NCBI GenBank assembly: GCA_016185945.1
Contig: JACPMR010000015.1
Span: 7,256 to 71,255, forward strand
From: Candidatus Woesearchaeota archaeon
GTDB taxonomy: Archaea; Nanobdellota; Nanobdellia; Woesearchaeales; GW2011-AR4
Direction of reading: 5' to 3'
Length of the DNA stretch: 64,000 nucleotides
Under the pieces are notes generated by a model, which was given only the letters and a program-made list of their open reading frames with translations, was not told the origin of the DNA and ran no database searches. Shown piece by piece: positions 10,819-58,863 of this stretch. How positions within the stretch are numbered: the stretch's first letter is position 1; each line of letters opens with the position of its first letter. A program made the position numbers and the translations under genes.

Positions 10819-11475
10819 ATGGACGGAGATAAATTAGAACCAAGAGTAAGACAACTTGAAGAATTGATAAGGACTGTAGAAGGGGTTAGTGAACAAAAAA
10901 AACAAGAAATGTTGGAATTAGTTCACCAAGTATCACTGCACGACCCACTTACAGAACTTCCTAATAGAACTCTGTTTGCTAGAAGATTTAACGAAGAGGC
11001 ACATAGAGCTGCAAGACATGGGCAGCCTTTAGCAGTTTTAGCACTTGATTTAGACTATTTAAAAAGATATAATGATATGTATGGACATCTACAAGGAGAT
11101 AGGGCGTTAATACACGTTGCATATTTGTTGACTCGACAGAGAAGACCTGAAGACATAGTAGCAAGAATTGGCGGAGAAGAATTTGATGTAGTGCTTCCTG
11201 AAACTGACGAAAGAGGTGCTGTCACAGTTGCTGAAGATATTTTAAGAAGATTTAGATCACATCCAATTAACGATTATGTTGGGCTTCCAGAAAGAGCAGA
11301 AGCAACATATTTCAAAAAAAGAACATTCCGCGATCTTACTATGAGCATTGGCGTAGCTACCTGCACGCCAAAAACTAATTCAGATGCTCTCCTATTACCA
11401 GCCGATGCTGATAAAGCGTTATACTCAGCAAAAGAAGCTGGAAGAGATAGGTATGTTGTTTATCGAAGTAGATAG
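10819..11475 (+). CDS. GGDEF-domain diguanylate cyclase (bacterial-type, intact I-site and A-site)
   Basis: Near-consensus GGDEF domain: DPLTELPNRTLF, LDLDYLKRYNDMYGH, I-site RPED, active site RIGGEEF, C-terminal SIGVA...ALYSAKEAGRDRYVVY; short N-terminal coiled coil; locally elevated GC. Confidence 0.85.
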   Translation: MDGDKLEPRVRQLEELIRTVEGVSEQKKQEMLELVHQVSLHDPLTELPNRTLFARRFNEEAHRAARHGQPLAVLALDLDYLKRYNDMYGHLQGDRALIHVAYLLTRQRRPEDIVARIGGEEFDVVLPETDERGAVTVAEDILRRFRSHPINDYVGLPERAEATYFKKRTFRDLTMSIGVATCTPKTNSDALLLPADADKALYSAKEAGRDRYVVYRSR

Positions 11476-16363: not shown

Positions 16364-16519
16364 GCACCCTCCTTTATTCTGAAAATAAGTGTTGCTATTC
16401 TAAAATAATAACTTGTATTTAAACTTTGTGGTAGTTAAAAGATTTTTAAATAACCTATAAAAATAACATTCAATAAATTGCAAAGGATTCATTCTAAATA
16501 AATTTGTATTGAAAAGAAA

Positions 16520-16594
16520 TGGGCTCGGCGGGACTTGAACCTGCGACCTCTGCCTTATCAGAGCAGCGCTCTAACCAAGCTGAGCTACGAGCCC
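16520..16594 (-). tRNA. tRNA-Ile (anticodon GAU)
   Basis: Minus-strand cloverleaf GGGCUCG-UA-GCUC-AGCUUGGUUA-GAGC-G-CUGCU-CUGAUAA-GGCAG-AGGUC-GCAGG-UUCAAGU-CCCGC-CGAGCCC-A; 7-bp acceptor; one A-C mismatch in the T-stem. Confidence 0.8.
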
Positions 16595-16649
16595 AACAAA
16601 TAATGGAATAATATTTAATTTATAAAGTTTATTAGAAGGAAAAATATAG

Positions 16650-36852: not shown

Positions 36853-38907
36853 TTAAACAAACAACGGCACCAGAACTAGGGTTATTGTACTTAACAGCTT
36901 AATCAAGACATGCAAGCTTGGGCCTGCTGTGTCCTTAAATGGGTCTCCTATTGTATCTCCAGTTACTGCTGCCTTGTGAGCTTCACTTCCCTTGCCGCCA
37001 TGTTCGCCTTCTTCAATAAGCTTCTTTGCATTGTCCCATGCACCGCCGCCTGTGTTTAGCAACAATGCCATCAAAATGCCTGTAATAGTTGCAACCATCA
37101 AGTAAGCTGCAGCAGCCTCATACTTAAGAACAACTCCGACAATAACGGTTACAACAACAACAAGTAACCCAGGCAATATCATTTCTTTCAAAGACGCCTT
37201 AACACATATGTCAACAACTTTGGCGTAGTCGGGCTTTTCCTTGCCTGTCATTATGCCTTTTTTCTCCTTCCACTGCCTCCTGACTTCATGGACAATTGTG
37301 TAGGCAGCATCTCCAACTGCCCTTATGGCAAATGCGCTGAACAAAAATATCAGCATTGCACCAATCAAAGCGCCAACAAAGACATCAATCTTTGCAATAT
37401 CAACTGTAACAACTTTCATGCCTGTGTGCTTTGCAACATCATCAAGGTAAGCTGTAAACAAAAGAAAAGCTGCCAAAGCAGCACTTCCAATAGCGTAGCC
37501 TTTTGTCAATGCCTTTGTTGTATTGCCTACTGCATCAAGCTTGTCTGTTCTTTTTCTAACAGCACTAGGAGCATTGCTCATCACAACAATGCCGCCTGCA
37601 TTATCGGTTATTGGACCAAAATTATCCATTGCAAGTATGTAAGCTGCTGTTGCAAGCATCCCCATTGTGGCAATTGCTGTCCCATAAAGTCCGCCATGCG
37701 CAAGGTTACTCATCTGCCCAAACTTGAAGGAAACAAGCAAGGCAATTGAAAGAACAATTACAGGCAATACAGTTGCTTCAAGCGCAACTGCAAATCCACT
37801 TATTATGTTTGTTGCATGCCCTGTCAAAGATGCTTTGGCTATGCTCTTTACAGGCCTGTAAGTTGATTCTGTATAGTAAACTGTGATCCAGACAATCAAA
37901 ATGCTTGTTATTATGCCAACCAATCCAGCATAGAAAAACCATATGTTGTTAAGAAGCCATTTTGTTGCTGCATAGAATGCGATTGCTGCCAAGAAGCTTG
38001 TTATGTAATAGCCCCTATTCAATGCAGTCATGGGGTTTTCGTTTTCATTTCTTAGCTTGACAGACATAATGCCAATCATTGTTGCTATCAATCCAAATGC
38101 CCTGACAACCAAGGGGAACAAAACTCCTTTAATGCCGAAGTATGGAAATAAAGCAACTCCAAGTATCATTGCTCCTATGTTTTCAGCAGCAGTGCTCTCA
38201 AACAAATCTGCTCCTCTGCCAGCGCAGTCTCCAACATTATCGCCAACCAAGTCCGCAATAACTGCCGGATTTCTAGGATCGTCTTCTGGAATTCCTTTTT
38301 CAATCTTGCCTACCAAATCAGAGCCGACATCCGCTGCTTTTGTGTAGATTCCGCCGCCAAGCTGGGCAAACAGCGCAACAAAGCTAGCGCCAAATCCATA
38401 GCCAACAATCAGGAAAGGAACTTCCTTTGGATCTGTGCCAATGCTAAACAATGAGTAAATCAAGGCAACCCCTAGCAAGGACATTGCAACTATTACAATG
38501 CCGGATATAGCGCCTGAGCGCAACGCAACAACAAAAGCGTCATTCATGCTTTTCCTTGCAGCGCTTGCTGTCCTTATATTAGCCCTTATGGAAATCCACA
38601 TGCCGACAATGCCTGCAATAGCAGAGCTTACTGCCCCAAACAGGAAAGCAATGCTTGTTCGCCATCCCAAACCAGTATTGCCGAAGAATGCATATGCTGC
38701 ATAAATGATAATAGCAAGGACAATTGAGAGTATTGCTATTGTTGTGTACTGCCTCTTCAGGAATGCTTCTGCGCCTATCTTTATTGCAGCTGCAACTTCC
38801 TGCATTGCTTCCGAGCCAGTGTCTTTTTTTAGAATCTGCCTTGTCAAGTAGCCGGCAAAAAGCAATGCCAAGACGCTAATGGTAATAACAATACTGAGAT
38901 AAACCAT
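36853..38907 (-). CDS. hppA: membrane-bound proton-translocating pyrophosphatase, K+-independent type
   Basis: 684 aa, about 15 TM; GYGFGASF ... DVGSDLVGK ... [16 protein letters not shown] ... [20 protein letters not shown] (Lys at the A/K position marks K+-independence) ... DNAKK; start at MVYLSIV. Confidence 0.85.
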
Positions 38908-38984
38908 TGGTTTTGGGAAAAAATAGGTATATATAAAGGTTTTTGTGAATGTTGTTTTCAGTCCTTTAAAATAGTAAAAATTAT

Positions 38985-40283
38985 ATGCATGCAGTTCCAA
39001 ATACACTTAAAATGCTGGAATTCCTAAAGAAAATATTCAAAAGCGAGGAGCAGGAAGTAAAAAAAGCTGCTGAAATAAAGCTGCAATATCTTGAGGAATG
39101 GATTGGAGAGCAGGCAAAGCCATTGACGGAAGATACACAGTACAAAATTGAAGAAATATTTATGAGGGTTAGCGAGGAACTGCAAAGGGCAAGGATTAAT
39201 GTCGAAACTTTGGAGAATGCAAAGCTGCAAAACCCAAATATACCATTCAAAGCAAAGCAGTATATGGAAGGCAACAGGAAGGCATACATAAGAGCAATAA
39301 ACTCCTTTCTTGGACATGCAGAGATAAACAACAAAGATTATTTTTATCTTTTGGATTTCTGCAAATTGTTTGATAGGTTAATAGACGATTTAAATAAGGG
39401 AACTTTTAGGAGCTATACAATACTGCAGGAGTTTTTTGCAAATGAAACAAATAAAATCGCTGAAAACCTCAAGAGTTTTGATGATTTATTCAAAGAGCTT
39501 AAATCCGTGCTGAACAGCAAAAAGATTGTAGCTGTAAATAATTCCAGGCAGAAGGCCCAGAACTTGAGCGCAAAAACAAAGCAGAAAATAAACATAGATG
39601 TGGATTTCAAAAATGCAGAGGCAAGCTTAAAGCTGGCAAATGAAGAGAAAGATTCAGTTATGGCGGAGATAATGGATTTCAGCAAAGGTGATTCCCACAA
39701 TAATTTTGTTAATTTAAACGAAGAGAAAAAGAATAAAGAAAGGGAATTTTATCAAGATCAAGATCGAATACTGCAAAGCTTTTCCGTGCTTGAAAGACCG
39801 TTGAGGAAATATTCGCATGTTGCATTCGAGCACGAGGAGATTGTTCTGGATTATCTGAAGCAGCCGATTGAGACTCTGGCCAATGACAAAGAAATGAAGA
39901 TTGCTGAAATTCTGAAAAATATGGAAAAATTGCTAGATGAAAACCAAATACAGATTGATGAGAAGAAAAGGGAAAAATCACTTGAAGAGATAAAGAAACT
40001 GAACAAGGAATTTTTGGAGCAATTCACCAAGAAATATTATTCGTTTAAATCCGAGATTGAGGAAATTGACAACAAAATAAAGATGACTGGTGTGCCAGAT
40101 AAATTCAGGAACTTTAATAAGCAGCTTGAGGATATTAATTTGAGGATTGAGAAAAACAATGAAGAGTATGAAAAACTGAAAAGTGATGTTGTCAAGATAA
40201 ACAATTCAATTGAAAGCCTGAAGAGCGAGATTGAAGGCGATGTTAAGGAGATTTTTGGGGAGGATATTAAGATTGTTGTTTGA
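38985..40283 (+). CDS. coiled-coil protein, unknown function
   Basis: 432 aa, Lys/Glu-rich with heptad-like periodicity throughout; no enzymatic motifs. Confidence 0.4.
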   Translation: MHAVPNTLKMLEFLKKIFKSEEQEVKKAAEIKLQYLEEWIGEQAKPLTEDTQYKIEEIFMRVSEELQRARINVETLENAKLQNPNIPFKAKQYMEGNRKAYIRAINSFLGHAEINNKDYFYLLDFCKLFDRLIDDLNKGTFRSYTILQEFFANETNKIAENLKSFDDLFKELKSVLNSKKIVAVNNSRQKAQNLSAKTKQKINIDVDFKNAEASLKLANEEKDSVMAEIMDFSKGDSHNNFVNLNEEKKNKEREFYQDQDRILQSFSVLERPLRKYSHVAFEHEEIVLDYLKQPIETLANDKEMKIAEILKNMEKLLDENQIQIDEKKREKSLEEIKKLNKEFLEQFTKKYYSFKSEIEEIDNKIKMTGVPDKFRNFNKQLEDINLRIEKNNEEYEKLKSDVVKINNSIESLKSEIEGDVKEIFGEDIKIVV

Positions 40284-42186: not shown

Positions 42187-44142
42187 TCAAACCATTAAAG
42201 GCACAAAAACAATCGCAACTATTGACATCAGCTTAATCAAGATATTCAAAGAAGGTCCTGCTGTGTCTTTGAAAGGATCTCCAACTGTGTCGCCGACAAC
42301 TGCTGATTTATGAGCTTCAGAGCCTTTGCCGCCAAGGTTGCCTGCCTCTATGTACTTTTTTGCATTGTCCCATGCACCGCCAGAATTAGCCATGAAAATT
42401 GCCAGAGAAAAACCAGTTACAATAGAGCCGACAAGCAGCCCTCCTAATGCCTCCAAGCCAAAAAAATAGCCAACTATAATAGGGGCAAAAATTGCCAACA
42501 AGGAAGGCATTACCATCTGCCTTAAAGCGCTTCTTGTGCTTATTGCTATGCATCTCTCATAGTCGGGCTTTGCCTTGCCTTTAGCAAGTCCTTTTATTTC
42601 CTTCCATTGTCTTCTTACTTCCTCAACAATCCCAGAAGCTGCTTTTCCCACTGCCTGCATTGCAAATGAACTGAACAGGAAAGGAAGCATCCCGCCAATG
42701 AACAAGCCAATTATTACATTTGGGCTAGAGATGCTCATTACTTGAATTTTTGTAATTTGAGTGAAGCTTGCGAATAATGCTAATGCAGTCAATGCAGCAC
42801 TTCCAATTGCAAAGCCCTTTCCAATAGCTGCGGTTGTGTTGCCGACTGCATCAAGCAATTCTGTTTTTTCTCTGACATCTTTGCCAACCTTTGCCATCTC
42901 TGAGATGCCTGCTGCATTATCAGCCACTGAGCCGTAAGTGTCGATAGCAAGTGTTATGCCCAAAGTTGAAAGCATTCCCACTCCTGCAATTGCTATGCCA
43001 TAAAGCCCTGCAAACTTGTAAGCAACTAAAACAGCAATTGAAACCACAAGAACAGGAATCAAGGTTGAGAACATTCCGACAGCAAGCCCTTGAATTACAT
43101 TTGTGCCTGCACCTGTCCTTGCTGCAGCTGCAATGCTTTTTGTCGGAGCATTTTTGTTTGATGTCATGTATTCTGTGAATAAGCCGATTACAACACCGAC
43201 AATCAAGCCCGCCAATGCTGCATAGAAAATTCCAATGTCAAGTTTCTGGTATTTGACAAGCAAAAATGAGAAAATTGCAGTCAATATAGTGCTTATGTAC
43301 AAGCCATTGTTTAATGCATTAAACAAATGCTTTTCATCCTTTGCCCTTACAAAAAATATTCCAATTAATGAAGCTAAAATCCCTAATGCAGCCAAAGCCA
43401 AAGGAAATATTACATGGCTAACTCCAAATAAAGCCACGCCTATAACCATTGCAGCTATTATGCTGTTGACATAACTTTCAAACAAGTCAGCACCCATGCC
43501 TGCGACATCACCTACATTGTCGCCCACATTATCGGCTATAACTGCTGGATTTCTTGGGTCGTCTTCTGGTATCCCTTTCTCGACCTTGCCAACCAAGTCA
43601 GCGCCAACATCCGCTGCCTTTGTATAAATTCCTCCCCCAACCCTTGCAAATAAAGCAATTGAAGATGCGCCAAAGCCAAATCCAAATATTATGTTTGGAT
43701 CGCCAAAAATTTGGTAAAGAATTGTAACTCCTAATAAGCCAATGCCTACAACGCTTAACCCCATGACAGAGCCAGAGTAAAAAGCAAGCCTTAAGCCCTC
43801 CCCTATATGCTTTTTAGTTGCCTCTGTTGTTCTTGAGTTTGCTCTTGTGGCAATCCTCATTCCAATATTTCCTGCCAATGCAGAAGAAAAGCCGCCAATT
43901 ATGAAAGATATTGCAAGCTTTTGCCCGTTTTCAAGAAAGAAAAACATTATTAATGCAACAATAAGTATGAAAATAACCAAAAATTCATATTCTTTTTTCA
44001 GAAAAATCAAGGCTCCTTTATGGATTGCCTCAGAAATTTCCTGCATTTTGGCAGTGCCTGCTGGCTTCTTTAATATGTAGAAAGCGAGAAATAAGGCAAC
44101 TAGCAATGATAAGATGCTTATGCTGATAATGAATTGAAGCAT
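42187..44142 (-). CDS. hppA: membrane-bound pyrophosphatase, K+-dependent type (H+ or Na+ pumping)
   Basis: 651 aa; GFGFGASS ... DVGADLVGK ... [16 protein letters not shown] ... [20 protein letters not shown] (Ala at the A/K position marks K+-dependence) ... DNAKK. Confidence 0.85.
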
Positions 44143-45162: not shown

Positions 45163-45912
45163 TTATAAAAATTTCTTCAATAAATCAATTTCATTATGTG
45201 TATTATGTACCTCAAACCTTCTCAAATCAAAATAGCCATTGTGATGCGGAGTGTTTATCATAATTCCTCCAACCAATGCTATTTTTCCATTAAAATGATG
45301 TTTTAGGCTTTCTATAATTTTCATCATTGCTTCATCAACTAGCATGTAATTAACTTCAACTAATTCTTTGATATGATTTTGGGAAGAAATAATTCTATAA
45401 GCATGGGACAGCATCATTTTTTCAACTGAGTACTGCTCCATATCAAGAGCATCTTCAACTGGCTCATATTTCTTGCCGTTTTTCATTGACTCCTTATATT
45501 TGTTCAAAAACGAGATTGCTGCACCGCAAGCTGTTGATTCATGAAATTGATTTTCCCTTAGAACTTTTCCTAGTTCTCCTTTTGGTGAAATTCCTACATG
45601 AGGGCCATAAAGTATCACAAAATTAACTTCAGATTGGTTATTTGGTGCATGATGCGAAAATGCAGCAAAGCCTGTTTTTCCTCTGAATGGATATCCTGTC
45701 AAACCTCCCAATGGAAATTGATGCTCTCCATAATATGATTTGAAACTTGTTACATCTCTGTTTAACTCATCAGGGCAAGTTGAAAATCCAAATAAAGTAT
45801 TTTTTGGAGTGAATTGATGGGTTTTCATTAAAGTGTCTACAACTTCAATAGTCAATTTGTGCCCTTCAATTGCTTTTGGAAAATGCTTCAATAAAGTTTC
45901 CGTCATTATCAT
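45163..45912 (-). CDS. LCIB/DUF1445-like protein with a beta-carbonic-anhydrase-like Cys-His-Cys site (candidate)
   Basis: 249 aa; Cys46 (FSTCPDELNRD), His105 (YGPHVGIS), Cys129 (HESTACGAA); the spacing (about 59 and 24 residues) matches my recollection of the zinc ligands of LCIB-family beta-CA-fold proteins; sits between atpB/proteolipid-2 and atpD. Confidence 0.35.
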   Translation of the reverse strand: MIMTETLLKHFPKAIEGHKLTIEVVDTLMKTHQFTPKNTLFGFSTCPDELNRDVTSFKSYYGEHQFPLGGLTGYPFRGKTGFAAFSHHAPNNQSEVNFVILYGPHVGISPKGELGKVLRENQFHESTACGAAISFLNKYKESMKNGKKYEPVEDALDMEQYSVEKMMLSHAYRIISSQNHIKELVEVNYMLVDEAMMKIIESLKHHFNGKIALVGGIMINTPHHNGYFDLRRFEVHNTHNEIDLLKKFL

Positions 45913-46522: not shown

Positions 46523-47893
46523 TTACTTTATCTCCTTGTAATATTTCTTCCTCAATTCTGGGCTTATTCTTGTCAGTTCACTCTCTGGCAGCAATCCGAG
46601 TAGTTTCCAGCCCAAGTCAAGGGTTTCTGCAATGCTCCTTTCTTCATCCCTTCTTTGCCTTACAAACTTGTCCTCAAACTCGGCAGCTAATTTTAAAAAT
46701 TTTTTATCTCTTTCGCTCAATGCCTCTTCGCCAACAATCGCAACTAATCCGCGTAAATCCCTGCCTTCTGCATAAGCAGCATAAAGCTGGTCACTTACTT
46801 GCTTGTGGTCTTCTCTTGTTCTTGTTGGCCCAATGCCCAAATTCATTAACCTTGAAAGTGAAGGCAATACATCAATGCAAGGGTAAATTCCTTTCCTGTG
46901 CAGTTCTCTCAACAAAACAATTTGCCCTTCTGTAATATAGCCAGTCAAGTCAGGAATTGGGTGAGTAATGTCGTCTCCAACCATTGTTAAGATTGGAATT
47001 TGGGTAATGCTTCCTTTCTTTCCTTTGATTACTCCAGCCCTTTCATAAATTGTTGCCAAGTCAGTGTACATATAACCAGGGTAGCCCCTTCTCCCCGGGA
47101 TTTCTTCACGAGCAGCGCCAATTTCGCGAAGCGATTCGCAATAGTTAGTAATGTCTGTAAGAATGACAAGAACATGAGCGTCATGCTCGAATGCAAAATA
47201 CTCTGCGCAGGTCAAGGCCATTCTTGGTGTGACAAGACGCTCAACAGCCGGATCATTTGCAAGATTGAGGAAAACAACGCTTCTTTCAATTGCGCCTGTC
47301 TGCTGGAAATCGTTAATGAAGTACTGCGCTTCCTCGTTTGTTATGCCCATTGCAGCGAAAATAACGACAAAGTTTTCCTGCCTACCGACAACTTTTGCCT
47401 GGCGAGCAATCTGCAAAGCAATTTCATTATGAGGCAAGCCAGAGCCTGAAAACAAAGGCAGTTTCTGCCCCCTGACAAGGGTATTCATTGCATCTATTGT
47501 TGACAATCCGGTCTGTATGAAGTCATGCGGAGAAGCTCTTGCAAAGGGGTTTATTGCAGCGCCAATTATGTCTAATTTCTTTTCCGGTATTATTTCCGGG
47601 CCGCCATCAATCGGCTTGCCAGAGCCGCTTAAGACACGTCCAAGCATGTCATTTGAAACACTCAACTTTAAAGTGTCTCCCAAAAACTTGACTCTTGTAT
47701 CAATATCTATTCCAGCAGTTCCCTCAAACACCTGAACAACTACAATATCGTCGCTAGTATCAAGGACTTGCCCATTTTTTATTTCTCCATTAGGCAGAGC
47801 AATCTTAACAATATCGGCATATCCAATTGGCTCTGTCTTCTCTACAAAAATCAAAGGGCCTGCAACTCTTGTTATGGTTTTGTATTCCTTCAT
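46523..47893 (-). CDS. atpB: A-type ATP synthase subunit B
   Basis: 456 aa; [12 protein letters not shown] ... [16 protein letters not shown] ... canonical regulatory-subunit motifs. Confidence 0.9.
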
Positions 47894-48612
47894 GCTCTCA
47901 CTCTTAAAGTAAGTTCTAAAAAGTTGGTTAAAATTTTTTTTCTATTACGGCCATATTCTTCTTTTATGTTATTGAAATCTTCCCTTAAAGAATCTGCATT
48001 AACAGACTTCAAATCAGGGTCTTTTAGTATCCACTCATCAAGCAGAGAGCCGGTTAATTCCAAATGCCCTTGAAACCCATAAGCACTTCCTCCAACTTTT
48101 ATAACTTGGTTTTTGCAATATTTTCCAGTTGCCAATAACGACATACCATGCCCTAGTTTTACAGTTTCGCCATGTAAGTGGAATATTCTCATGGGCGATT
48201 TAATTCCTTTAAAGATTTGGTCATTTTTGCCTTCGTCTGTTAACTCCATTTCAAAATAATTTCCTTCAGGATCCCTCCATCCAATTTCTTTTATGAAATT
48301 TTTGTGAACCTCACCACCCATAGCCTTTACTAATGTTTGTGCACCCAAACAAATCCCTAAATAGGGCAGTCCAAAATTAACTGCCTCCCTGATTCTTCTA
48401 ATTTCATTTTTCATTTTGAGTGTGCTGTCATTTGCACTATCCGGACCACCCAAAACAATCAGTGACATATAATCAGTAGGGTCTGGAAAAATTTGCCCTT
48501 TGCTTAAGTCGAATATATCATAAGGGATATCGTTTTCCTTTAAGATAGCCTCTATAAATCCAGGGCCTTCCCTGTCAATATTTTTTACAATCAAAACTTT
48601 TTTTCCATTCAA
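47890..48612 (-). CDS. class I glutamine amidotransferase (GATase1-like, stand-alone), inserted between atpA and atpB
   Basis: 240 aa; nucleophile elbow GICLGAQ, C-terminal FQGHLE (His/Glu of the triad); start and stop codons overlap atpA and atpB. Confidence 0.75.
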
Positions 48613-56015: not shown

Positions 56016-56441
56016 ATGAAAGTTAAAGAGGTACTACACAGAATTATGAAGATTTCTTCCGACACTAGTGTTGCTGAAGCTGCAAGAATAATGAGTGAGA
56101 AGCTGACTGGTTCTGTTTTAGTGGAAGAAGATGGTGATGTTATTGGTATAATGACTGAAAGGGATATGATGCGCAAGGTTGTTGCAAAAGCCAAAAATGC
56201 CAATCAGTTGAAAGTGAAAGACATAATGAGCACTCCCCTCATTACGATTGATGCAAACGAGGATATTTTAGAGGCAAGCAGAATAATGGATCGGCACAGG
56301 ATAAGAAGACTTATTGTTGTTGAAGATGGTAAGATTATAGGGAAAGTCACAGCCAATAGCATTTCTAGAAATCTTAAATATTTGTTAGCGAGAGACACGT
56401 CAATGTATTCTAAAACCGAATATTATGGGCATAGAGAATAA
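56016..56441 (+). CDS. CBS-domain pair protein
   Basis: 141 aa; two CBS motifs (VLHRIMKISSDTSVAEAARIM ... and LITIDANEDILEASRIM ... RLIVVEDGKIIG). Confidence 0.75.
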   Translation: MKVKEVLHRIMKISSDTSVAEAARIMSEKLTGSVLVEEDGDVIGIMTERDMMRKVVAKAKNANQLKVKDIMSTPLITIDANEDILEASRIMDRHRIRRLIVVEDGKIIGKVTANSISRNLKYLLARDTSMYSKTEYYGHRE

Positions 56442-56484
56442 AAACAATAAAATTTATTAGACAAGCGCATGTCCTCATTCATAT

Positions 56485-56624
56485 GCGCCGGTAGCTCAGC
56501 TTGGTGAGGCTAGCGAGCACTCGCTTTGCTTCGTGCAAATAGAGCGAAAGGTTCCTAACCTTTAGGCCGGGGGCATGATTGAGTACATGCTCTTTCATCC
56601 CGAATTCGAATCCTCCCCGGCGCG
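56485..56624 (+). tRNA. tRNA-Arg (anticodon CCU) with two non-canonical introns (D-arm ~36 nt; T-arm position 53/54 ~31 nt)
   Basis: Acceptor GCGCCGG/CCGGCGC (7 bp); U8-A9-GCUC-AGCUUGGU D-arm start; anticodon arm AAAGG-UUCCUAA-CCUUU at 56547-56563 (U33, anticodon CCU, A37); T-stem 5' GGGGG at 56569-73 separated by 31 nt from the T-loop UUCGAAU + CCUCC; D-arm 3' half GAGC-G at 56542-46 follows a 36-nt insertion containing the GCGAGCACUCGC hairpin. Confidence 0.6.
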
Positions 56625-56975
56625 TTTATAAATTTAAAAATAAATATAAATCTAACTATATGATACCCATTATCTGCTTCAGCGATGTGGGTACCCCTCA
56701 TATAACTTGTTCCACCTAATGATGAACAATAAAGTGCATTAAGCACACTGCCTCGTACTGATGAGGAACCCATGGAGTAGTGCTATCTAGCATAGCATGA
56801 AAAATTGTATCCGAAGCGAGAGAGCAGAAAAAATTATTTGAAATCGAAGTACATTCTTAAATTACAAGAAACATTGCCAACCACAAAAATCTTTTAGCAA
56901 ATTGTTGTGGTTGGCAAGATAGCAAACCACAGCTATTATACCCATCTATTTCTGTGGTTTGCTATATAAGTAAAT

Positions 56976-58388
56976 TTATTTCACAAACCTCTTCACAATC
57001 TCCATCACTTTCTTCCCATCAACCTTTCCCCTGTACTTTGCCATTATCAAGCCCATATAGGCGCTTTGCGTCAGATTTGGTTTTTCTTCAATTATTTTTT
57101 TTATTTCTTTTTCCAAATCTTTTTCAGAAACAGATTCAAAATGCTTTATATCGATTTTCTCTCCAAGCGCCTTTTTTTCCAATAAATCCATTATGGCTTC
57201 TTTTGCTATTTTTCCTTCAGCAAAATATGAAAGCACTTCCTCAAAATCTTTAACATCTAATTTTCCTTTTATTTCAGTGGGTGTATTTACTATAGTCCTG
57301 GCTATAAGCAAAGGCTCTAATTTTCCCAATTTTTTTACAAGAGATTCAAATTCTGTGTCAATCAAATCTTTTCCTACACCTTTAGGCAATCCGTATTTTT
57401 TCTCGAATTCTTCAACTTTTTCTGTTAATAATTTTGGTAATGATTTTCTTAGTCTCTCAATATATGTTTTGTCAACTCTTACTGGCAAAACATCTGTTTC
57501 AGGGTAAAGACGAGCAGCACCCGGCAATGGCCTAAGAAAAGCTGCTGTGAAGTTTGGCTCTGCCTTTCTTACCTCTTTTTCAAGCTTCTTGCCGTGATTT
57601 ATTGCCTCAAGCTGCCTTTTCACTTCATATTCTATCACTTTAGGAATGCTTCTCAAGTCCTGAAAGCCCTTTATCTCTGTTCGTGCTCCGCCTGATATTG
57701 AAATATTGACATCCTGCCTTATTGTACCAAGCCCTCTTTTTACTCCTTCAACGCTTCGCAGAATCATGCCGATATGAGCAGCAACCTCTTTTGCATGTTC
57801 AGGACTTTTTATGTCGGTGCTTGTTGCAATTTCTATTAGAGGAATGCCTAATCTGTCAAGCCTGTACCTTACAAAGTCTTTGTCTTCTTCTAATTTCTGT
57901 GCTGCCTCTTCTTCTAGGCAGATTGTTGGAATTCTAACATTACCAAGAGAAGTTTCAATAAAACCATTGATTGCAACCAATACAGTCCTCTGAAAGCCTG
58001 ATACGTTACTGCCATCAACAACAGTCTTGCGCATTACTTGAATTTCGTCGACTATTTTTGCGTTTAACAATAAAGCAACTTTCAATGTTGTTTCAAGGGC
58101 TTGCGTGTTCAATTTATGTGGCGGCTCTTCGTCTGTCTCTACAAGGCAAACATCCTCGGAATTTGCCTCATAGATTATCTTCTTTTTCTTCATCATCTCA
58201 AATTCCGCTGCAACATCTATGTCGCCTGTTTCTCCAGCTACCGCCTTCAATTTTCTCTCGAATTTTATGTCTGGTTCTTTAGTAGAATTCAAAGTAAGGC
58301 AATTGCAGAATAGTTTTTTGCCTTCTAATTGCTGGTGGATTTCTAAACCACATTTAAATCCAATTTCTTCATAGTTTATTTTTTCCAT
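56976..58388 (-). CDS. gatE: glutamyl-tRNA(Gln) amidotransferase subunit E
   Basis: MEKINYEEIGFKCGLEIHQQLEGKKLFCNC: GatB/GatE catalytic N-terminus; C-terminal YqeY-like helical domain; 470 aa, shorter than typical GatE. Confidence 0.8.
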   Translation of the reverse strand: MEKINYEEIGFKCGLEIHQQLEGKKLFCNCLTLNSTKEPDIKFERKLKAVAGETGDIDVAAEFEMMKKKKIIYEANSEDVCLVETDEEPPHKLNTQALETTLKVALLLNAKIVDEIQVMRKTVVDGSNVSGFQRTVLVAINGFIETSLGNVRIPTICLEEEAAQKLEEDKDFVRYRLDRLGIPLIEIATSTDIKSPEHAKEVAAHIGMILRSVEGVKRGLGTIRQDVNISISGGARTEIKGFQDLRSIPKVIEYEVKRQLEAINHGKKLEKEVRKAEPNFTAAFLRPLPGAARLYPETDVLPVRVDKTYIERLRKSLPKLLTEKVEEFEKKYGLPKGVGKDLIDTEFESLVKKLGKLEPLLIARTIVNTPTEIKGKLDVKDFEEVLSYFAEGKIAKEAIMDLLEKKALGEKIDIKHFESVSEKDLEKEIKKIIEEKPNLTQSAYMGLIMAKYRGKVDGKKVMEIVKRFVK

Positions 58389-58623: not shown

Positions 58624-58863
58624 TTATTTCCTTTCCCAAACAACAACATTATCTTTAGCGACTTTTTTTATCCTATGCAATGGGATGTTTGTTTCTTCCT
58701 CATTGTCCAAAACCATAAAAGAACCTTCCAGTTTTTTAATTTTTGTATAAGGGATTTTTATTAATGTTTTTTGAATCCTGTCAAAATAAAAAAGTGTATA
58801 TTGCTCTGGGTTTTCCCTTTTGTCCCATTTTATCTTGTTGAGCAAATCTTTGATTGTAATCAT
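58624..58863 (-). CDS. DUF504-like small protein
   Basis: 79 aa; KWDKRENPEQYTLFYFDR ... ETNIPLHRIKKV ... VVVWER resembles the archaeal DUF504 pattern. Confidence 0.45.
   Translation of the reverse strand: MITIKDLLNKIKWDKRENPEQYTLFYFDRIQKTLIKIPYTKIKKLEGSFMVLDNEEETNIPLHRIKKVAKDNVVVWERK

Follow-up and report, generated by a model that had tools for sequence, protein, structure and literature searches.

Within a 64,000-nucleotide stretch of DNA from an uncultured member of the Woesearchaeota, referred to here as the window, the 140-nt locus at positions 56485-56624 of the forward strand appears, from comparison with its relatives, to be a functional tRNA-Arg(CCU) gene of this DPANN lineage, interrupted by two protein-spliced introns; we put the probability of this reading at about 0.9. 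The gene consists of three exons of 20, 35 and 20 nt, separated by one insert in the D-loop between tRNA positions 19 and 20 and a second one in the T-arm between positions 53 and 54. Direct support comes from the exon/intron boundaries, from the geometry of the bulge-helix-bulge (BHB) motifs that the boundaries define, from covariation within these motifs, from orthology and from the presence or absence of each intron among related genomes. Here, we describe the gene and its spliced form, the evidence at each junction and the distribution of the introns, and then weigh other explanations of the locus.

The complete gene reads GCGCCGG UA GCUC AGCUUGG, then UGAGGCUAGCGAGCACUCGCUUUGCUUCGUGCAA (intron 1), then AUA GAGC G AAAGG UUCCUAA CCUUU AGGCC GGGGG, then CAUGAUUGAGUACAUGCUCUUUCAUCCCGAA (intron 2), and finally UUCGAAU CCUCC CCGGCGC G. 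Exon 1 (56485-56504, as all parts of the gene on the + strand) contains the 5' strand of the acceptor stem, U8 and A9, the 5' strand of the D-stem and the D-loop through G19. Exon 2 (56539-56573) runs from A20 to G53 and comprises the 3' strand of the D-stem, the anticodon arm, the variable loop and the 5' strand of the T-stem, and exon 3 (56605-56624) supplies the T-loop, the 3' strands of the T-stem and the acceptor stem, and the discriminator G73 (56624). An earlier inspection of the letters without database searches (the sequence-only reading) had named a perfect 7-bp acceptor pairing, a canonical start to the D-arm, an anticodon arm and a T-arm, and all of these are present at the places it gave: GCGCCGG (56485-56491) pairs with CCGGCGC (56617-56623), the D-stem is GCUC/GAGC, the anticodon arm is AAAGG-UUCCUAA-CCUUU with the anticodon CCU (CCT in the DNA, reading AGG) at 56554-56556, and the T-arm is GGGGG/UUCGAAU/CCUCC. 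It had also placed an insert of about 36 nt in the D-arm, which is real but is 34 nt long and lies in the D-loop at the G19/A20 junction, outside the stem (intron 1, 56505-56538), and an insert of about 31 nt at 53/54, which is exactly 31 nt long (intron 2, 56574-56604, at the G53/U54 junction). A hairpin, AGCGA-GCAC-UCGCU, lies inside intron 1, where the GCGAGCACUCGC hairpin of the same reading is found at 56513-56524. CCA is not encoded, and a short T-run (TTTAT) follows directly 3' of the gene. With introns at 19/20 and 53/54 and none at 37/38, the gene fits the multiple-intron class, and since its three exons stand in order on one strand within 140 nt it is neither split nor permuted.

Judged by sequence identity, the assignment of the gene is far beyond chance. 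Splicing in silico joins the exons as GCUUGG/AUAGAGCG and CCGGGGG/UUCGAAUCC (i.e. GG/AUAGAGC and GGGGG/UUCGAAU) and yields a 75-mer that is identical at 75 of 75 positions to L031, an intron-less syntenic orthologue in a Woesearchaeota metagenome-assembled genome (MAG), whose positions 1-20, 21-55 and 56-75 correspond to exons 1, 2 and 3 and against which both introns are insertions. With the Rfam tRNA model (gathering score 29), L031 reaches 65.4 bits, and ARAGORN calls tRNA-Arg(cct) in L031, in the intron-less L072 and in the window gene once both inserts have been deleted in silico. The minimum free energy (MFE) structure of the spliced 75-mer is a cloverleaf (-31.4 kcal/mol), as expected from the proposal that a cloverleaf forms only after removal of both inserts. 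Features of tRNA-Arg(CCU) are present in the spliced form: the anticodon loop UUCCUAA has 7 nt with U33, C35 and A37, and A20 opens exon 2. We take A20 and C35 to be arginine identity nucleotides for ArgRS, as in other organisms, from which an arginine identity of the tRNA would follow.

That standard tRNA finders would miss the interrupted gene was borne out for the two that were tested. ARAGORN misses it with and without its intron option, and Rfam misses it at the gathering threshold; over the whole 64-kb window, the sole ARAGORN call is a tRNA-Ile at 16519-16595, and this tRNA-Ile alone is reported by Rfam at the gathering threshold. The intron option of ARAGORN models anticodon-loop introns only. 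In E-value mode, Rfam gave for the interval 56300-57100 a mis-registered tRNA match of 15.9 bits plus noise and nothing else, and for the whole window at E<=1 the tRNA-Ile (16520-16594) with overlapping noise and no further hidden tRNA. Among the relatives described below, L026, which has the T-arm intron only, is detected by Rfam with 43.2 bits, L014 (D-loop intron only) and L019 (both introns) are undetected, and ARAGORN is silent on L014, L019, L026 and L100.

BHB motifs consist of a 4-bp helix between two 3-nt bulges, the central helix of canonical introns including anticodon nucleotides 34-35 (PMC4090602). Splice sites were scanned for as positions at which the last 6 nt of an exon are a 4-nt helix strand and two bulge nucleotides, those of the intron are the complementary strand and again two bulge nucleotides, and the next exon opens with the third bulge nucleotide. 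A BHB fold, on which the proposal of two introns depends, can be formed at both of the proposed junctions, with a central helix of 4/4 pairs in the T-arm and with the same geometry and one U.U mismatch in the D-loop.

In the T-arm, the scan has a unique best solution, with the 5' site after 56573 and the 3' site before 56605, a central helix of 4/4 pairs and an inner helix of 4 bp. The resulting motif (56568-56605) has the central strands CGGG (56568-56571) and CCCG (56599-56602), the bulges GGC (56572-56574) and AAU (56603-56605), and the inner strands AUGA (56575-56578) and UCAU (56595-56598), so that intron 2 shows the 4-bp helix, the two 3-nt bulges and predicted splice sites two nucleotides into each. 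Covariation was assessed in a gap-free alignment (A3) of 22 distinct sequences, from which the divergent introns of L123 and L137 were left out as MAFFT misregistered them; these were inspected by hand. Across the 22 sequences, 99.6% of the cells are paired, and three pairs account for 15 cells with double changes: the central pair G50-C becomes A-U in four sequences, the first inner pair A-U becomes G-C in nine and an apical pair A-U becomes G-C in two. The observed covariation score is reached by none of 500 shuffles, and when the 3' partners are slid by 1-3 columns, pairing falls to 38-58%. It is this covariation that settles the register within the run of G residues; energies alone would not decide it, as the BHB conformer of the mini-substrate and its MFE structure are both at -14.0 kcal/mol.

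In the D-arm, the best solution that gives a tRNA-like D-loop has the 5' site after 56504 and the 3' site before 56539, and defines an intron of 34 nt. Its BHB motif (56499-56539) is of the relaxed type: in the central helix, GCUU (56499-56502) faces GUGC (56533-56536) with 3/4 positions paired and one U.U mismatch, the bulges GGU (56503-56505) and AAA (56537-56539) have the expected geometry, the inner helix of 5 bp is formed by GAGGC (56506-56510) and GCUUC (56528-56532), and an outer helix is formed by A14-U20a and the D-stem. In variants with a short intron, the third central-helix position carries a standard pair and the central helix is 4/4. Covariation was assessed on the BHB cores of 16 distinct sequences with introns of 19 to 109 nt; each core joined 11 exon and 6 intron nt through an artificial linker, AAAA, to 11 intron and 7 exon nt. 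In these cores, 92% of the cells are paired and 12 cells show double changes. Four of the five inner-helix pairs have changed on both sides, none of 500 shuffles reaches the score, and the slid controls pair at 12-37%. At both junctions, exon-intron helices are thus maintained by compensatory changes. The boundaries of intron 1 are fixed mainly by comparison with intron-less orthologues, which permits a single junction pair given that the first base of the intron in the window is U. An alternative D-loop junction, GGU/.../UAGAGC (spliced GGUUAGAGC), was rejected as one nucleotide off, both by the BHB scan and by the intron-less orthologues (GGAUAGAGC).

Orthologues were collected with an exon-2 pattern from one genome per species, a set of representatives that does not contain the window's own genome (113 loci), and from metagenomes with a pattern in which an insert had to precede the T-loop (25 more); about 60 orthologous genes were aligned to the intron-less template. 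Archaeal matches are almost all in MAGs of Woesearchaeota, Pacearchaeota or Nanoarchaeota. The order V-ATPase subunit I, PhoU-like 290-aa protein, CBS, tRNA, GatB/E-like, MJ1316-domain protein and GatD recurs in dozens of Woesearchaeota contigs, and the syntenic loci are 67-78% identical to the window in nucleotide sequence. All four intron states occur at identical junctions among equally distant relatives, whose flanking proteins are 70-86% identical to those of the window. Introns are absent from L031 and from L072, which has a single D-loop difference from the window exons. The 34-nt D-loop insert stands alone in L004, L014, L027 and L060, and homologous D-loop introns of 21-36 nt stand alone at the same junction in L055, L058, L065 and L093. 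The T-arm intron alone is found in 14 loci (L026, L033, L098, L113, L118, L121, L124, L126, L127, L130-L132, L138 and L139), and both introns are found, as in the window, in 11 (L015, L019, L056, L084, L100, L117, L120, L125, L135, L136 and L141). The family of intron 1 extends to L004, L014, L019, L027, L056, L060, L100, L125, L141 and others. Fixed junctions and synteny together therefore identify these genes as orthologues, each insert being present in some and absent from others.

Intron sequences are conserved as strongly as the exons: the 31-nt T-arm intron is 100% identical in the window, L026, L117, L121 and L136, the neighbouring proteins of which are about 75-81% identical. Either selection on the introns or exchange of the gene between species by recombination could explain such conservation. 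In another tRNA-Arg(CCU) lineage, with a GCCCCUG... acceptor (L123, L129 and L137), a 31-nt intron of unrelated sequence is found at 53/54 together with a 15-nt D-loop intron; a hand alignment gives an inner helix of 9 bp and a pair between exon U50 and an A of the intron. This looks like an independent use of the insertion sites. Counting two further sites in other Woesearchaeota orthologues, there are at least four insertion sites in one orthologous gene (19/20, ~21/22, 53/54 and ~58-61), occupied in mosaic combinations. One of the further sites follows GGAU/GGAUA in the D-loop (~21/22) and the other follows UUCGAA/UUCAAA in the T-loop (~58-61); they carry introns of 14-196 nt in L009, L020, L023, L024, L041, L053, L062, L089, L091, L114, L122, L133 and L134, as well as in L030, L039, L044, L047-L050, L052, L057, L059, L071, L087-L090, L106 and L116; the D-loop inserts of L024 and L091 reach 195-196 nt.

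Some loci carry additional irregularities. In L015 and L084, the intron 1 family is lengthened to 109 and 73 nt, respectively, by an insertion in the apical hairpin (GCGAGCAG followed by further sequence and CUGC...), an arrangement that looks nested. In L020, L041 and L038, the last 13-19 nt of the tRNA (e.g. CCTCGCAGGCGCG) recur 45-80 nt 3' of the gene and could be attachment-site remnants of an integrated element or mark a further intron near the 3' end. L050 has the reverse complement of the D-intron-bearing 5' half of tRNA-Arg(CCU) directly after the gene, which points either to a partial duplication in inverted orientation or to a chimeric assembly. Contigs that match the window at 100% identity are present, for example, in the samples SRR12113431, SRR12113424 and SRR12113383. 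Three independent Logan contigs (L001-L003) that are 100% identical to the window all stop at 56535, inside the D-loop intron; a branch in the de Bruijn graph would produce such a common end if co-occurring strains keep exon 2 and differ upstream, for example in intron content. Woesearchaeota-type tRNA-Arg(CCU) loci are also found in MAGs labelled "uncultured Methanosarcinales" (L006, L009, L019, L033, L044, L058, L059, L065, L068, L080, L081, L083, L090, L093 and L103) and, with a gene identical to that of L059, in one labelled "Parcubacteria group bacterium" (L030). These labels are probably taxonomic mislabels or reflect mis-binned contigs, and in several of the loci (e.g. L009, L019, L033, L081, L090 and L093) the flanking genes match those of the window as well.

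Transcription, cleavage and ligation, and the enzymes involved, are what we infer from these data. The gene would be transcribed from its own TATA-box promoter into a precursor of ~140 nt; in this precursor, each intron would pair through its 3' end with exon nucleotides, intron 1 with G15-U17a of the D-loop and intron 2 with C48-G51, to form the two BHB motifs. EndA would cut two nucleotides into each 3-nt bulge, i.e. after 56504, 56538, 56573 and 56604, an RtcB-type ligase would join the three exons, and post-transcriptional addition of CCA would complete a 75-nt cloverleaf tRNA reading AGG. By its position and conservation, TTTATTA at 56453-56459 (+), ~32 nt upstream of the tRNA 5' end, is a putative archaeal TATA box: TTTTTAAA or (T)TTTTAAA is found at -30/-31 in nearly all orthologous loci, and the variant TTTATT at -32 in the window and slightly farther upstream (-34 to -43) in L009 and L088-L090. 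In the long ORFs (open reading frames) of the window, 14.2 of every 1000 codons are AGG, which makes up 35% of the arginine codons.

Several observations weigh against a functional, spliced gene. The third central-helix position of the D motif is U.U or U.C in 11 of the 16 sequences compared, and in an isolated mini-substrate the BHB conformer of this motif (-12.6 kcal/mol, against an MFE of -19.2 kcal/mol) is 6.6 kcal/mol less stable than an alternative register. The T motif has no outer helix and is of the HBh' type, and the two motifs together would need an endonuclease of broad specificity; EndA and RtcB were not found in the 64-kb window in a Pfam scan of 60 ORFs. Beyond the 64 kb analysed, the genome may hold another tRNA-Arg(CCU) gene, one that has no intron. 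Two matching genes were found in one scanned MAG only (JACPGZ, intron-less) and a single match in every MAG with an intron-containing gene, an argument for a single copy that is weakened by the incompleteness of MAGs. A rival reading takes the locus for a pseudogene, i.e. a former tRNA-Arg(CCU) that two insertions have inactivated and that gives no functional tRNA, a functional copy perhaps lying elsewhere in the genome; its escape from the standard finders tested and the imperfect motif at the D junction speak for this. We hold it to be very unlikely. At all 75 exon positions the gene matches functional intron-less orthologues, with flanking proteins that are no more than 70-86% identical, and its inserts end exactly at the BHB-predicted sites and have helices that covary. 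In addition, the promoter is conserved, the two-intron layout is kept in at least 11 other species or contigs, and the MAGs with intron-containing genes yielded no second match.

Retention of one or both inserts in the mature RNA, as expansion segments forming a large D-loop or T-arm, would accommodate the stable stand-alone hairpin into which the D insert folds, and is a still weaker candidate than a pseudogene. Contact between the D-loop and the T-loop is an established part of tRNA tertiary structure, and 34 nt after G18-G19 and 31 nt at G53/U54 would break it; moreover, orthologues with identical exons do without either insert, and the conserved, covarying features are the pairings between exon and intron and not an autonomous arm. 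The patchy occurrence of the inserts among close relatives, and the much longer D-loop inserts of some (e.g. 195-196 nt in L024 and L091), could also be taken to mean that they are footprints of another kind of mobile element, such as the remnant of a miniature inverted-repeat transposable element or an insertion sequence, or a fragment of a group I or II intron. To this we give the least credence of all, as inserts of 31-34 nt are too short for ribozyme introns, reading of the junctions reveals neither target-site duplication nor terminal inverted repeats, and BHB geometry is present and conserved. Copies of the introns outside tRNA-Arg(CCU) genes were not found in the window or in about 0.9 Mb of related loci, so these sequences give no evidence for transposition between tRNA genes. 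A tRNA-Arg(CCU) gene with two introns of the BHB type, the one at the D site relaxed, is thus the explanation we prefer.

Just 3' of the tRNA, on the same strand, the window holds a conserved structured RNA (56731-56833) that starts with a small hairpin and continues with CUGCCUCG, UACUGAUGAGGAACCCAUGGAGUAGU, a variable hairpin and AUGAAAAAUUGUAUCCGAAGCGAGAGAGCAG. It has no Rfam match in E-value mode over 56300-57100. RNAalifold predicts 21 pairs, six of them with compensatory changes. Searching 100 sources with a covariance model (R1) gave 25 copies, each of which lies downstream of tRNA-Arg(CCU) on its strand, in most cases at a distance of 0-200 nt. The base of the structure has sequence features of a box-C/D-like kink-turn (K-turn; CU/GAU/GA/GGA opposite UCC/GA/AG), and a position that varies between G and U falls in its 3-nt bulge. 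CUGAUGA is the conserved core motif of hammerhead ribozymes and is broken by CUUAUGA; since CUUAUGA is found in many orthologues and the variable base lies in the K-turn bulge, the CUGAUGA...CGAA element was judged not to be a hammerhead. The RNA may be an undescribed small RNA (sRNA) that binds L7Ae, and it could plausibly share a transcript with the tRNA.

Between the GatB/E-like and GatD genes, an ORF of 79 aa (58624-58863, -) matches the Pfam family MJ1316, an RNA cyclic group end recognition domain (E 2e-17), and the DNA bearing it is kept beside the tRNA locus in relatives. Products of the splicing endonuclease carry 2',3'-cyclic phosphate ends; the proximity of this ORF to an intron-bearing tRNA gene may be a coincidence. 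The GC content is 36%, and the flanking genes are typical of DPANN/Woesearchaeota. Elsewhere in the window, several genes are unusual for DPANN: one for a stand-alone GGDEF (diguanylate cyclase) domain protein (10819-11472, +; E 8e-41), those for an LCIB-like beta-carbonic anhydrase and a class-I glutamine amidotransferase that interrupt an A/V-type ATPase operon (45163-45909 and 47890-48609, both -), and two H+-pyrophosphatase genes (36853-39003 and 42187-44139, -).

Thermoproteales, ARMAN-2 and DPANN genomes are already known to contain tRNA genes with several introns at non-canonical sites, 53/54 among them, and no new mechanism is involved here. In the Thermoproteales (Sugahara et al. 2007/2008, as cited in PMC4090602 and PMC4033280), according to these citing accounts, tRNA genes similarly carry two or more short BHB introns at non-canonical positions, including the D- and T-arms, which are removed by EndA and missed by ordinary finders. 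The window, in contrast, belongs to the DPANN/Woesearchaeota and not to the Crenarchaeota, and its gene lacks a canonical intron at 37/38; moreover, similar introns are shared between tRNA species of Thermoproteales by transposition, whereas the introns of the window have no copy outside tRNA-Arg(CCU) in the DNA searched. A parallel within DPANN is the tRNA-Pro of ARMAN-2, which has an intron exactly at 53/54 and a second one in the same gene; the ARMAN-2 endonuclease cleaves a relaxed motif in vitro, and the intron sites of ARMAN-2 overlap the major archaeal insertion sites (Fujishima et al., PMC3239211). The ARMAN-2 gene differs in the tRNA concerned and in the second intron, which lies in the T-loop in ARMAN-2 and in the D-loop at 19/20 in the window, with T-loop introns (~58-61) occurring in relatives of the window. 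The split tRNAs of Nanoarchaeum equitans, another DPANN lineage, likewise have exons joined at a relaxed BHB by EndA, whereas the window gene would be spliced in cis from three colinear exons.

Kaneta et al. 2018 (PMC5829648) reported that alpha4-type EndAs with an L3 loop accompany more disrupted tRNA genes in DPANN, including multi-intron genes; their survey included the Woesearchaeota genome RBG_13_36_6 and noted incomplete tRNA sets that call for manual searches. Consistent with the suggestion of the sequence-only reading that multiple non-canonical introns mark a few archaeal lineages, the window gene is a multi-intron gene of the same superphylum, for which disrupted tRNA genes are on record (PMC5829648). 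Neither the gene nor its pair of intron sites with their mosaic distribution is described in the main text of that study.

The addition made here is modest: at least four insertion sites in one orthologous gene, occupied in mosaic combinations. The gene fills an apparent gap in the annotation, that of the isoacceptor reading AGG, and similar gaps are on record for DPANN, such as the missing tRNA-Trp and tRNA-Val of complete Nanobdellota genomes (bioRxiv 10.64898/2026.05.13.725050). As orthologues with no intron, the D-loop intron only, the T-arm intron only, both, or introns at other sites form a series, they provide a clean comparative set for the gain and loss of BHB introns. A more speculative and rather doubtful proposal is that the two introns are independently gained and lost modules under selection and not neutral passengers and, separately, that the tRNA is co-transcribed with the downstream K-turn sRNA. 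The mosaic of insertion sites, and a 31-nt intron that is identical in genomes with less similar neighbouring proteins, would fit a selected role, which might for example be to break up the tRNA as an attachment site for integrating elements, or to provide a stable excised intron RNA. If this were true, the gene family could be a natural system for timing the gain and loss of BHB introns.

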